A DNA stretch of 64,000 nt from positions 32,001 to 96,000 of the forward strand of contig CAVZJB010000018.1 of NCBI GenBank assembly GCA_963775425.1, read 5' to 3'. The stretch's first letter is position 1, and the number at the start of each line of letters is the position of its first letter. Below are positions 53,650-57,608 of the stretch, piece by piece. The position numbers and the translations under genes were made by a program. The notes beneath the pieces are model-generated. The model worked only from the letters and a program-made list of their open reading frames with translations. It was not told where the DNA came from and searched no databases. This stretch comes from an uncultured delta proteobacterium (GTDB lineage Bacteria; Myxococcota; UBA727; VGSZ01).

Positions 53650-54230
53650 GCTTCCGGGGTGTCCTGAGCGACGCGGGTCTGGCGGCGCCGCTCGTGGAGG
53701 CGTGCGCGGTCCACTTCGCGTTGCTCCTGCGGTGGAACCGGACCCATAACCTCACGCGCATCACCGACCCGGACGAGGCGGCTCGCAGGCACTACCTCGA
53801 CTGCCTCGTCCCGTTGCTCGCCTGGGACGCGCCCGCGTCCTTCGCTGACGTCGGCGCGGGCGCCGGCTTCCCCGGGCTGCTGGCGGCACTGGCGTGGCCT
53901 GCGGCCGCGGCGACTCTGGTGGAGCCGGCGGCCAAGCGGGCGTCCTTCCTCCGGCTCGCCGCGACGGAGATGGGCGTGGCGGTCGAGGTGCGGCCGCCTG
54001 GCGCGGGGGACTTTGCCCGGGTCCTGTCGCGCGCGACATTTCCTCCGGGAGAGCGGCAGGGCCTGGAGGCGTACGCGGCGGCGCGGGCGTCCGTCGCGGT
54101 GTGGGGTCACGCCGCCGACCTCGCCGCCTGGCGCGCGGAGCTCTCGGGGTGGAGCCGCGCGTGGACCGCCGGTCTGCGCGATTACCAGGTCCCCGGCCTC
54201 GAGCCCCGCGCCCTGCTCGTGGCGGGTTGA
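53646..54230 (+). CDS. rsmG: 16S rRNA m7G527 methyltransferase RsmG (GidB)
   Basis: [22 protein letters not shown] and SRA motifs. Confidence 0.9.
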
Positions 54231-54250
54231 CGGGCGGTCCCCGGGAAGTC

Positions 54251-54309
54251 GGGCAGGTCACGCCCCGGCACAGGGGCGCTCGAGGTCCGCGGGCGCCGGT
54301 CACGCGCGG
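54251..54309 (+). repeat. Approx. 58-bp REP-like direct repeat, copy 1 (near-identical copy at 55464-55521, partial copy at 55420-55448)
   Basis: GGGCAGGTCACGCCCCGGCACAGGG(G)CGCTCGAGGTCCGCGGGCGCCGGTCACGCGCGG with an internal CGCCCC/GGGGCG hairpin. Confidence 0.9.
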
Positions 54310-54367
54310 CGAGCTTGTCGCGGCGGCGGCCGTGAGCGCGGCGCGCGGTGTGGGGTGCGTCCGAGGT

Positions 54368-54453
54368 GGCGCCCTGGGCTTGCCCGCCCTCGGCTGCTCG
54401 CGGCTCCAGGCGGCCGAAGCGGGCGCCCCGGGCTTGCCCGCCCTCGGCTGCTC
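54368..54453 (+). repeat. 32-bp direct repeat pair (54368-54399, 54422-54453); the second copy abuts the IS110 left end
   Basis: GGCGCCC(T/C)GGGCTTGCCCGCCCTCGGCTGCTC, one mismatch. Confidence 0.9.
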
Positions 54454-54479
54454 ATTGGACAACCTCTACGCCGCGGTGA

Positions 54480-54680
54480 CGGGTTGAGCGATCTTCCCGG
54501 CGCCGTCTCCCGGGCTTCGTCGGGGAGGGCCGCGCTCGCTTGCCGGTGAACGGCCCCTGTGAGACCCGCCCCCTCGACGAAGCCGGGAGCCTTGAAGCGG
54601 CTACAGGACGTTGCGCCCGACGATGTTTGCTGACGACGACGGAGCGCCTGTCAATGAGCAACCGATCAAGGCTCCCAGCC
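54480..54680 (+). ncRNA. Putative IS110 bridge RNA (target- and donor-binding loops)
   Basis: Perfect stems GGCTTCGTCG/CGACGAAGCC (54513-22/54575-84) and GGGAGCCTTGA/TCAAGGCTCCC (54585-95/54666-76), each enclosing an internal loop; guide complementarity to the element end and flank; ends approximate. Confidence 0.7.
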
Positions 54681-54712
54681 CGGGGGACGGTACCGCAACA
54701 AGGAGGTCCGTC

Positions 54713-55386
54713 GTGTCGTACTTTGCAGGTTTGGATTGGGCGGCGAACGAACACGCCGTCTGCGTCATCGACGACAAGGGCAGCGTCGTGCTCCGCCTCG
54801 TCGTCAAGCACACCGAGGAGGGTCTCACCGGCGCTGTGGCGAAGCTCCGTAGGTTCACTGAGGAAGCGCCGCTGCGCATCGCCATCGAGCGGCCGACGGG
54901 GCTCGTCGTCGACACGCTGGTCGATGCGGGATTCCACGTCGTGCCGATTCACCCGAACGTCGTGAAAGCGACGCGTCCGCGCTACTCGAGCGTTGGCGCC
55001 AAGAGCGACCCCGGCGACAGCTACCTGCTGGCAGACTTGCTGCGCACCGATGGGCATCGCTTCAAGACGCTCACGCCGCTCGGAGACGAGACGAAGGCGC
55101 TGCGTGCCCTCGTTCGCGCACGCGGCGACCTCGTTGCCGAGCGGGTTGCACTGGCGAACCAGCTGCGCGCGCTCGTTGAGAGCTTCTGGGCCGGCGCCGC
55201 GTGCATCTTCCGCGACATCGACTCGCCCATCGCGCTGGCGTTCCTCGGGAGGTACCCGACACCGCAGCACGCCGAGCGCGTCGGCGAGAAGCGGCTCGAA
55301 GCGTTCCTGGCGCGCAACCACTACTCCGGTCGCAGGGACGTCGCCGAGCTCCTGGGCCGCTTGCGAGGTGCGCCCAGCGGCATGAC
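54713..55386 (+). pseudogene. IS110 transposase/recombinase, N-terminal RuvC-like DEDD domain only
   Basis: AGGAGG RBS; GLDWA, IAIERP and KSDPGDSYLLAD motifs; C-terminal Tnp domain absent, frame runs into repeats and stops at 55606. Confidence 0.85.
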
Positions 55387-55690
55387 AGCCGCTTGGGCTT
55401 CCTGGGATGACGGACCCCCGGGCAGGTCACGCCCCGGCACAGGGGCGCGGGCCCTGGGATCCCGGGCAGGTCACGCCCCGGCACAGGGCGCTCGAGGTCC
55501 GCGGGCGCCGGTCACGCGCGGGCAGATGCAGGGGCAGGCGCGCGGCCACCACGTTCACCCCGCGAGGCGCGACCCTGCGAGCGAGCGGAGCTCCATCACG
55601 TGGTGAAGGCCACCCACCACGTGGCAGCGGCCGACCGGCTTTCGTGTGCCACGGGCAACGCGCGCTGTGCGCAGCAAGGAAGATGGGGTG

Positions 55691-55706
55691 GTTTTCACGT
55701 GGAACA
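55691..55706. promoter_or_regulatory. parS: parS site
   Basis: GTTTTCACGTGGAACA, 14/16 to the parS consensus, upstream of parA. Confidence 0.8.
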
Positions 55707-55801
55707 TTCGAGACGAACGCAAAAAAATCGAGTGAAAACAGCGGATTAAAATGCCGACGCCGCGGGTGGTACGAGGTCGGCCCTCGCTCGCGTCGCTGGG
55801 G

Positions 55802-55817
55802 TGTTCCACGTGAAACC
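55802..55817. promoter_or_regulatory. parS: parS site
   Basis: TGTTCCACGTGAAACC, 15/16 to the parS consensus. Confidence 0.88.
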
Positions 55818-55945
55818 CTCGCCCCACGCGCCCCGCCACGTGGCAGCCGTCTCCACTTTGGGCTGGACGTCGATCCCGGCCGAGCGTACAAGGAGCGCCC
55901 CGGCAGCAACAGAAGCTCGAATCGCGGGCAAATCGCGGAGGTCCC

Positions 55946-56734
55946 ATGGGTCGCGTGGTCGCCATCGTCAACCAGAAGGGAGGCGTCGGGAAGACCACGA
56001 CGTCCGTGAACCTCGCCGCGTCCCTCGCCGCGCAAGGCCAGCGCGCCCTCCTCATCGATATGGACCCGCAGGGCAACGCCTGCAGCGGCCTCGGCGTCTT
56101 CGCGACCCCCGAAGAGCAGACGCTCTATCATGTCCTCCTCGGGCACGCGTCCCTCGACGACGTCATTCGCCCCACCGATGTCGCCGGGCTCTCCCTCGCC
56201 CCCTCCAACACCCAGCTCGTCGGCGCCGAGATCGAGCTGGTCAGCGAGCTGGCCCGGGAGACCCGCTTGAAGCGGGCCCTCGCCAAGGTGCAGGGCTCCT
56301 TTGACGTCGTCCTCCTCGACTGCCCGCCCTCCTTGAACCTCCTCACCGTCAACGCGCTTACCGCCGCCGACGCGGTCCTCATCCCGCTCCAGTGCGAGTA
56401 CTACGCGCTCGAGGGTCTCTCGCACCTCCTCAAGACCATCGAGCTCGTGAAGGGCTCCCTCAACGAGCGGCTCGCCCTCGACGGCATCCTGCTCACCATG
56501 TTCGACGCGCGGAACAACCTCAGCCACCAGGTCATCGAGGAGGTGCGGCAGCACTTCCCTGGCCAGGTCTGCGACACCATCATCCCCCGGAACGTCCGCC
56601 TCTCGGAGGCGCCGAGCCACGGCAAGCCGGGCTTGCTCTACGACGTCGCCTCCCGTGGGGTGCAGGCGTACATCGCGCTCGCCGAGGAGCTCCTGAAGCG
56701 CTGGAAGCTCGAGAAGCCGGCCCGCGCCGCGTGA
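55946..56734 (+). CDS. parA: Chromosome partitioning ATPase ParA/Soj
   Basis: NQKGGVGKTT, DMDPQGNA, DCPPSL and RLSEAPSHG motifs. Confidence 0.97.
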   Translation: MGRVVAIVNQKGGVGKTTTSVNLAASLAAQGQRALLIDMDPQGNACSGLGVFATPEEQTLYHVLLGHASLDDVIRPTDVAGLSLAPSNTQLVGAEIELVSELARETRLKRALAKVQGSFDVVLLDCPPSLNLLTVNALTAADAVLIPLQCEYYALEGLSHLLKTIELVKGSLNERLALDGILLTMFDARNNLSHQVIEEVRQHFPGQVCDTIIPRNVRLSEAPSHGKPGLLYDVASRGVQAYIALAEELLKRWKLEKPARAA

Positions 56735-56738
56735 CCGG

Positions 56739-57608
56739 ATGAGGAGACGAACGATGGACAACGCCATGCTCGACAAGCGCCGCGGACTGGGACGAGGTCT
56801 CTCCGCGCTGATTCCGCCCAAGCCCGCCGAGGTCGTCGGCGGCCCCACCAAGGGCACGCCCACGCTCCCGATCGAGCAGATTCTTCCGGGAGATGGCCAG
56901 CCGCGGCAGCGCTTCGACGACCACCGCCTCGAGGAGCTGTCGGAGTCCATCAAGGCCCACGGCGTCATCCAGCCCATCGTCGTGCGCAAGCGCGGGGCGC
57001 AGTATGAAATCATCGCCGGCGAGCGCCGGTGGCGGGCGGCCCAGCGCGCCGGGCTCACCCACATCCCGGCGGTGGTGTCGGACGCGGCCGAACAGGACAC
57101 GCTCACGCTCGCGCTCGTCGAGAACCTCCAGCGCGAGGACCTGAATCCCATCGAAGAGGCCGAGGCGTTTCACCGGCTCCACGAGGAGCTCGGCTACAGC
57201 CAGCAGGAGATCGCCGAGGCCGTCGGCAAGGACCGCACGACCGTCGCGAACTCGCTGCGCCTCTTGAAGCTGCCCGCCGCGGTCCGCGGCCAGGTGCTCG
57301 GGGGCGAGCTGACCATGGGGCACGCGCGCGCGCTGCTCGCGCTCGACGACGCCGCCGAGATGGAGAAGCTCGGCCGCGAGGTCGTCGCCAAGAAGTGGAG
57401 CGTCCGCCAGACCGAGCGGGCCACGCAGCCGCCGCAGCCGAAGAAGCAAGGCCGCGAGAGCGAGGCCGAGCGGGACGTCCGGCAGCGCCTGCAGCGCGCC
57501 CTGGGCACCCGCGTGGACCTCAAGCACACGGCCGGCAAGGGCACCCTCTCGGTGCACTTCGCGAGCTTCGCCGAGCTCGAGTCGCTGATGGAGCGCTTCG
57601 GGGCCTGA
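56739..57608 (+). CDS. parB: Chromosome partitioning protein ParB/Spo0J
   Basis: GLGRGL, QPR, GERRWRA, ENLQREDLNPIEEA and HTH; the true start may be a later ATG. Confidence 0.97.
   Translation: MRRRTMDNAMLDKRRGLGRGLSALIPPKPAEVVGGPTKGTPTLPIEQILPGDGQPRQRFDDHRLEELSESIKAHGVIQPIVVRKRGAQYEIIAGERRWRAAQRAGLTHIPAVVSDAAEQDTLTLALVENLQREDLNPIEEAEAFHRLHEELGYSQQEIAEAVGKDRTTVANSLRLLKLPAAVRGQVLGGELTMGHARALLALDDAAEMEKLGREVVAKKWSVRQTERATQPPQPKKQGRESEAERDVRQRLQRALGTRVDLKHTAGKGTLSVHFASFAELESLMERFGA

Follow-up and report, generated by a model that had tools for sequence, protein, structure and literature searches.

What is encoded by the non-coding DNA at positions 54451-54712, immediately upstream of a recombinase gene, in a stretch of 64,000 nucleotides from the genome of an uncultured delta proteobacterium (Myxococcota; contig CAVZJB010000018.1, positions 32,001 to 96,000; this whole stretch is the window in what follows)? 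An initial annotation, made from the letters of the window alone, took it for the left end of an element of the IS110 family that encodes a bridge RNA, with a target-binding loop 1 and a donor-binding loop 2 around a CT core, and proposed further that the RNA belongs to an RNA-guided recombinase system programmed against a host repeat. The guides, the flanks of further copies of the element and covariation across homologues support the two-loop bridge RNA, and we put at roughly 0.9 the probability that an IS110-group element has its non-coding left end at 54451-54712, that an IS621-type bridge RNA is encoded there and that the window copy is a relic. The proposal concerning the host repeat fares much worse, and the reasons lead to the question of how strictly such an element chooses its targets.

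Intact copies, a truncated relic and the guides

The main source of evidence is the window's own 8.26-Mb genome, where a genome search found four further copies. These four are intact and identical across 1513 bp (as aligned, a length that takes in one target base of the left flank and five of the right flank) but for a single position, and their flanks are unrelated; the genome has five occurrences of a 40-mer taken from the left end and four of a 40-mer taken from the right end. The window copy is 100% identical to the other four from 54450 to 55382, with unrelated sequence upstream, and because the identity starts there amid unrelated flanks, the boundary of the element can be placed at 54450/54451, as the initial annotation had it; G 54450 itself is a conserved target base, position -1 of the left flank. 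The left junction reads (C/T)G-CT-CATTGGAC.. in all five copies; the four intact ones read ..TTGACACAGGACGT-CT-CACAG at the right junction, and the next two bases are CC or GC. The right terminus proper, which had been predicted as ..ACAGGACG-CT, is ACAGGACGT-CT-CACAG in each of the four. The ends have neither terminal inverted repeats nor a target-site duplication beyond the core dinucleotide, which is CT at both junctions of every intact copy.

The intact recombinase comprises 401 aa and matches both PF01548 (E 1.5e-32) and PF02371 (E 2.3e-14). Against chain 8wt6 of IS621, the Tnp domain gives an alignment (phmmer E 3.8e-7) with Ser315 opposite the Ser of the YESG motif; D8, E59, D99 and D102 can be located in the protein, the latter two aligning with the D..D pair of IS621. 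About 260 nt separate the core from the start codon and about 45 nt the stop codon from the right core. With these domains and residues, and with the intact copies at hand, the element is by all sequence features a member of the IS110 family, IS110 group, predicted to encode a DEDD/Ser recombinase, and there is good support for assigning 54451-54712 to its left end. A search of 60 related genomes for the recombinase found none at E <= 1e-40, and its nearest homologues belong to other phyla; given its absence at this threshold from 60 relatives of the host, the element looks horizontally acquired, and it looks recently multiplied as well. Near the ends of the element there is also a sub-terminal inverted repeat with 6/7 matches, GGTTGAC in the right end (L004:2991-2997) and GACAACC in the left end (L004:1509-1515; window 54458-54464), which flanks the donor arms at 9 and 5 nt from the core and whose right-end half overlaps the putative -35 box discussed below; the orthologues keep, by eye, a GGTnnAC/GTnnACC pattern at their element ends.

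The copy in the window, by contrast with the intact ones, ends at 55382, a fact that the initial annotation overlooked. Its recombinase frame runs through 223 codons identical to those of the 401-aa protein and then through 74 unrelated codons, open to 55606, and the product matches only DEDD_Tnp_IS110 (PF01548, E 1.2e-32), without the Transposase_20 domain (PF02371). The window copy is evidently a relic, in which a deletion took everything past codon 223, including the Tnp domain with the catalytic Ser and the right terminus, so that the copy is predicted to be capable neither of making the recombinase nor of being recognized as a donor. Of the claimed RNA-guided recombinase system, then, the bridge RNA stands and the working system does not. 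The deletion is probably recent, because the RNA-coding part is still 100% identical to that of the live copies. Action of the element's own recombinase was considered as the cause of the deletion and ruled out, there being no CT core at the 55382 breakpoint.

How can the guides be read? In IS621, each loop's 5' side is reported to pair with the bottom strand and the opposite, 3' side with the top one, the target being bound by loop 1 and the donor by loop 2 (Durrant et al., 2024, PMC11208160), and the two bases 3' of each right guide, the handshake guides, are described as pairing with positions 6-7 of the non-cognate rather than the cognate DNA (Hiraizumi et al., 2024, PMC11208158). Reading the region 54000-56800 of the window, we found all six motifs on which the initial annotation was built: CTCATTG at 54451-57 and its reverse complement CAATGAG at 54652-58, ACAGGACGTT at 54603-12, GCGCTCGCT at 54532-40, CTGTGAG at 54557-63 and CTCGCGG at 54397-403. 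The complementarity between loop 2 and the left junction holds precisely as had been described, and the left donor guide that had been suggested for 54603-12 is confirmed by the right end of the intact copies. All four guides, both pairs of handshake bases and the core can thus be assigned (Table 1). The right target guide may extend by one base, C 54556, which pairs with the sixth flank base in two of the four intact copies; in the donor-loop handshake, the A pairs with position -2 of the left flank (T) in the window copy only. In 100,000 mononucleotide shuffles of 54458-54712, CAATGAG turned up in 0.7%, CTGTGAG in 1.2% and ACAGGACGT in 0.1%, and the three together never.

Table 1. Features of the left end and its surroundings (window coordinates)
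Feature	Position	Strand	Remarks
Tandem 32-nt repeat, two units	54368..54453	+	units 54368-99 and 54422-53; period 54; 97% identity
CT core dinucleotide, left junction, common to target and donor	54451..54452	+	before CATTG in 5/5 copies; after ACAGGACGT in 4/4 intact copies
Right donor arm (RD) CATTG, first element-specific bases	54453..54457	+	complement of the 3' side of loop 2, 5/5
Candidate -10 hexamer CAACCT of putative junction promoter	54460..54465	+	xACCxT 17-18 nt downstream of TTGACA, in left end
Target-binding stem-loop	54513..54585	+	lower stem ~54513-29 with 54569-85; upper hairpin 54542-54
Left target guide GCGCUCG-CU, loop 1, 5' side	54532..54540	+	same sense as top strand of left flank and core
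Right target guide CUGUGAG, loop 1, 3' side	54557..54563	+	complement of CT+CACAG, right flank of 4/4 intact copies
Handshake dinucleotide AC, target loop	54564..54565	+	complementary to GT, last two bases of left donor arm
Donor-binding stem-loop	54586..54675	+	lower stem 54586-600 with 54662-75; upper GCGC 54613-16 with GCGC 54644-47
Left donor guide ACAGGACGU, loop 2, 5' side	54603..54611	+	same sense as right terminus ACAGGACGT, 9/9 in 4/4 intact copies
Right donor guide CAAUGAG, loop 2, 3' side	54652..54658	+	complement of CT+CATTG at left terminus
Handshake dinucleotide CA, donor loop	54659..54660	+	C pairs with left-flank -1 (G)
Truncated recombinase gene	54713..55382	+	GTG start 54713; AAGGAGG 7 nt upstream

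Covariation and fold of the orthologous left ends

Do the guides change together with the DNA that they are supposed to read? Ten loci were drawn from species genomes by protein scan (45-67% identity; Methylomirabilota, Gemmatimonadales, Roseomonas, Rokubacteria and Actinomycetota), and 19 further orthologous loci came from metagenomes. Eleven of these 29 were left out of the covariation counts: L012, L034, L036, L037 and L039, where a contig ends inside the element or at its junction; L016, L038 and L040, with no recognizable junction or an unreliable alignment; and L026, L027 and L029, in which the element and its flanks are the same as in L024, L007 and L009. With 18 loci kept, the counts cover 23 left junctions, 21 events with both junctions and 17 distinct elements, among which the right target guides come in 15 versions and the left ones in 16. 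Guides were read off fixed alignment columns, and the junctions were found via the donor arms, the target arms being scored afterwards.

The right flank agrees with the element's own guide at all five positions in 19 of the 21 events (4/5 in L032 and 3/5 in L009), with a mean match of 4.86 for cognate vs 2.60 for non-cognate guides; summed across 16 distinct elements, 77 of 80 positions match, which none of 20,000 permutations equalled. For positions -7 to -3 of the left flank, 50 of 85 positions match over 17 elements, again a score that no permutation among 20,000 reached. By position, the left flank matches in 23/23 junctions at -1, in 17/23 at -2 and in 4/23, the level of chance, at -7, so that the effective left guide amounts to 6 nt plus the core. 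From one homologue to the next, then, the guides change in step with the target and donor sequences of their own element, on the right as well as on the left, a point whose failure the initial annotation had named as refuting its reading. The core takes part in this: in elements with a GT core the guides end in ..GU and ..GAC, and in those with a CT core in ..CU and ..GAG. As for the handshake, the AC of the target loop pairs with the donor GT at both positions in 20 of the 21 events, and in the donor loop the first of the two handshake bases pairs with the left-flank -1 at every one of the 23 junctions; these positions are nearly invariant and supply one covarying case only (L009, G with C).

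The closest relative of the element, a metagenomic locus (L022:47-306) with 88% protein identity, has donor guides identical to those of this element and target guides that differ from them, TGCGTCGCT and CCGCGTGAG; the comparison of the two sequences identifies a natural, modular reprogramming of one loop only. Two further observations on the orthologues can be recorded here. In an element from Actinomycetota (L014), the left core is GC (L014:1242-1243) and the right core GT (L014:2733-2734), while the left target guide ends in GC and the right guides in AC, so target and donor may have had different cores when the insertion took place. A Rokubacteria genome contains, in addition to its three full copies, an isolated fragment with 88% identity that covers only the donor-loop part of a left end (L045, G062:C11:200812-200928).

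The fold of the RNA is in line with these results. The two stem-loops with internal loops that were noticed at the outset both appear in the predicted fold, with a minimum free energy of -143.2 kcal/mol for 54453-54713 (z = -6.05) and of -114.3 kcal/mol for 54490-54690 (z = -6.14); in either case, none of 200 shuffles folds as well. When one sequence is folded by itself, the guide segments form some pairs among themselves, as is to be expected because both arms of each loop hold the core, and in the RNAalifold consensus of nine orthologous left ends loop 1 is open. Across these nine, a structure of four helices has 88.5% of its cells paired, as against 43-49% when the partners are slid by 1-3 columns, and 19 of its 31 pairs change on both sides; no shuffle in 500 reaches any of the five measures used. 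In the target stem-loop, 9/11 pairs of helix 1 changed on both sides and 100% of the cells of helix 2 are paired in the orthologue alignment; the corresponding figures for the donor stem-loop are 9/12 in helix 3 and 100% in helix 4. The loops of the homologous left ends are, then, conserved in structure while their sequences change; a lack of such conservation was another outcome that the initial annotation had said would refute it. A 12-bp long-range helix (54503-14 with 54679-90, one G-U), which encloses both loops in the single-sequence fold, was considered as a part of the RNA and ruled out, being absent from the consensus fold of the nine orthologues.

Could the left end be something other than a guide RNA, such as a 5' leader for translation of the recombinase or a set of sub-terminal repeats to which the recombinase binds at the level of DNA? 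Donor guides are by their nature internal copies of the termini, the sub-terminal inverted repeat does flank the donor arms, and in the minimum-free-energy fold the long-range helix surrounds both loops. Loop 1 does not fit this picture: it matches host DNA outside the element and covaries with it over 16-17 distinct elements, and terminal repeats cannot explain a loop that changes together with such DNA. Furthermore, pairing in the stems survives changes on both sides, which argues for RNA, and the helix in question is missing from the consensus fold. We therefore attach hardly any credence to this explanation and retain the bridge RNA.

Several considerations nevertheless weigh against the bridge RNA reading or temper the evidence for it. 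The donor-arm matches are partly circular, because the junctions were located by searching for the donor arms; the target-arm matches are free of this problem. The orthologues are related to one another, so the shuffle controls overstate their independence. An Rfam search of 53800-56200 with E up to 10 yielded no family over the left end, its sole match being a chance-level Chloroflexi-1 inside parA. The candidate -10 hexamer CAACCT is weak and agrees only at A2 and T6 with the -10 consensus. Finally, the left target guide matches the left flank at just 3, 3, 3 and 4 of 7 positions in four of the five genomic copies, and six unoccupied CTCACAG sites in the genome have left arms that match at 6/7. 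This last point deserves an examination of its own.

Target choice and the 32-nt repeat

The repeat flanking the element, to which the initial annotation drew attention, is real, and the element interrupts its second unit after ..GGCTG-CT, the left target flank TCGGCTG occupying 54444-50. It is also true that CUGUGAG can pair with CTCGCGG, the corresponding sequence of the uninterrupted unit, at 7/7 positions with two G-U pairs. From these two facts one could construct an operating RNA-guided system with a target loop programmed against the repeat and reading CT-CGCGG through the two G-U pairs. However, the repeat has one more copy, 83% identical, in the 8.26-Mb genome, which makes three in all and not a repeat family; none of the four intact copies of the element is inserted in it, all four lying in unrelated sequence with CACAG as the right flank; and an operating system would need the Tnp domain and the right end, both of which are gone from the window copy. 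The third repeat copy moreover reads TCGGCTG-CT-CACAG, so that the interrupted unit need not have read CGCGG before the insertion. Programming against the host repeat is accordingly very improbable, and the proposal has to be given up in favor of a bridge RNA directed at CT-CACAG.

The third copy lies outside the window (G000:C18:175608-175664, minus strand), is unoccupied and shares its left flank with the window insertion, with a perfect right arm; it sits in the N-terminal, lipoprotein-signal-like part of an open reading frame on the opposite strand (..FGACSCEQP..). The uninterrupted unit, with CT-CGCGG, differs from CACAG at exactly the two positions where G-U pairs have to be invoked. As CACAG follows the core in the four intact copies and CT-CACAG is present in this paralogous repeat, CACAG is the likelier right flank of the window copy prior to insertion; the interrupted unit thus more likely read CACAG, the right flank itself having been deleted.

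What about the left arm? The initial annotation had already recognized that the left target guide fits the flank of the window copy only in part, the score being 3/7, and of the copies in this genome one alone (L004) matches at 6/7. The host genome contains no perfect 14-nt target site, 21 sites with one mismatch and 208 unoccupied CTCACAG sites. Strict two-arm targeting was considered for this genome and ruled out, the occupied sites scoring 6, 4, 3 and 3 in spite of better sites left unoccupied. Since the left arms fit poorly while sites with 6/7 stay empty, target choice appears looser than in a strict two-arm model. In the three copies of a Rokubacteria metagenome-assembled genome (MAG) the left arm matches at 2, 3 and 3 of 7 positions, and taking the multi-copy genomes together (five junctions in this one and three in the Rokubacteria MAG), one left flank in eight matches at 5/7 or better. 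In four genomes where a single copy was found, by contrast, the left arm matches at 6/7 in three and, counting U-G pairs, at 6/7 in the fourth as well. This contrast is only a lead, because two of these four are MAGs, which are prone to lose repeats.

A tentative suggestion, which we regard as somewhat less probable than its negation, is that in this clade the two target arms do different jobs in nature, a full match of both arms marking the first landing site in a new genome and half-match sites of the right arm being the main route of spread within it. The half-match sites may consist of the core, the 5-nt right flank and the one or two left-flank bases that are also read by the handshake. 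For IS621, the core and one complementary arm are reported to suffice for insertion in vitro and to account for many off-target insertions (Xie et al., bioRxiv 10.64898/2026.08.31.748434). In agreement with this, three of the four intact copies and the window copy have the core, a matched right arm (where this is known) and a left arm with 3-4/7; unlike in that study, the events considered here are fixed natural insertions, inferred from sequence. The genome re-analysis that Xie et al. describe could not score events with the right target only, because the right guide of IS621 has only 4 nt. If the suggestion is true, natural fixed insertions would be evidence that half-match recombination drives the proliferation of IS110 elements and is more than an off-target nuisance of engineered systems.

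Expression, related systems and the host locus

How would such an RNA be made and used? The circle of IS621 is reported to rebuild a sigma-70-like promoter across its junction (PMC11208158, PMC11208160), and integrated copies are reported to express the bridge RNA weakly (PMC13626964). By analogy, excision of the present element would join its right and left ends in a circle, and the junction would create a promoter out of TTGACA from the right end and the weak -10 hexamer from the left end. In eight of nine loci TTGACA shares bases with the beginning of the left donor arm, L009 having TGGACA, and the other loci have weak -10-like sequences, TACCCT or CACCCT. The bridge RNA transcribed from this promoter would read the target with loop 1, by CUGUGAG on the top strand of CT+CACAG, and the donor with loop 2, by ACAGGACGU on the right terminus and CAAUGAG on CT+CATTG at the left terminus; the handshake bases AC and CA are placed such that they could pair with the other DNA after exchange of the top strands. 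The complex of RNA and recombinase would then use ..CG-CT-CACAG.. sites for insertion of the circle.

The window copy cannot form this junction promoter, because the -35 half lies in the right end that it has lost, and any RNA from it would need read-through from rsmG. Might the relic still serve in this way as an RNA gene, supplying bridge RNA in trans to the recombinase of the intact copies? The gene rsmG ends at 54230 on the same strand, the stretch 54451-54712 is 100% identical to the intact copies, the IS621 bridge RNA is reported to work in trans (PMC11208160), and some of it is reported to come from integrated copies (PMC13626964). With no promoter of its own in the window copy, and with a recent deletion explaining the perfect identity equally well, we consider a continuing function of the relic unlikely, if less so than the other two alternatives, and take the copy for a plain remnant that preserves the bridge RNA sequence.

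In its layout the element closely resembles IS621, as far as the published accounts describe the latter. A long left end, upstream of the recombinase gene, codes for the RNA (PMC11208160, PMC11208158); the roles of the loops and the strand geometry agree, with the target in loop 1 and the donor in loop 2 (PMC11208160); the 5' guides are of the same sense and of 8-9 nt, and the 3' guides have 7 nt here vs the 4-7 nt reported; each junction has a CT core, and each 3' guide is followed by a handshake dinucleotide (PMC11208158); TTGACA in the right end is placed for a putative junction promoter; and the catalytic residues are DEDD plus Ser. The differences concern above all the protein, which is distant (E 3.8e-7, only the Tnp domain aligning well) and comprises 401 aa as compared with 328 residues in the PDB chain; it is equally distant from the ISCro4 transposase (PDB 9t56), the second solved IS110-family recombinase that the intact protein matches (E 9.7e-7). 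The right target guide is longer, with five flank bases plus the core instead of 4 nt; the first position of the 9-nt left guide matches at chance (4/23), leaving an effective length of 6 plus the core; and the natural targets are not REP elements.

Bridge RNAs have been predicted in 85.7% of the IS110-group elements of ISfinder, with thousands of elements analysed (Durrant et al., 2024, PMC11208160), and this element may already be among the predictions in the supplementary lists of that study; a literature search on bridge RNAs in myxococcal IS110 elements found no papers. The mechanism is one known from 2024 onward and the copy in the window is a dead remnant, so the present case is of value as a confirmation and not as a novelty, the relaxed left-arm matching of natural insertions being a modest extra point of interest. 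It is a case, all the same, in which raw sequence was enough to read a bridge RNA correctly and to assign its guides, core, handshake bases and target, in a region that Rfam models would miss. The five insertions of one element, together with L022, constitute a compact natural data set on reprogramming and relaxed left-arm recognition, and the intact copies, with a right guide of five flank bases plus the core, could serve as a candidate high-GC bridge recombinase.

It remains to describe the surroundings of the relic. A direct repeat of about 76 nt (54234-54309 vs 55447-55521; 42 nt at 88% and 36 nt at 100% identity), with a partial extra copy at 55403-55444, brackets the tandem 32-nt repeats and the truncated element and occurs nowhere else in the genome; it suggests that the truncation was connected with a local duplication or rearrangement. 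Upstream lie dtd and rsmG. Downstream of the element come two parS-like palindromes, TTTCACGTGGAA (55693-55704) and TTCCACGTGAAA (55804-55815), which precede parA and parB and, further on, a bactofilin gene. The parS consensus has two matches here, where 0.01 would be expected. The order of parA-parB and then a bactofilin gene, which may be associated with myxobacteria, is the one hint here at the myxobacterial host of the initial annotation; a Protein Atlas search with ParB gave mixed phyla. From its gene content, the whole, from dtd and rsmG through the parS-like sites and parA-parB to the bactofilin gene, looks like an origin-proximal segregation locus, with the relic lodged in its spacer.

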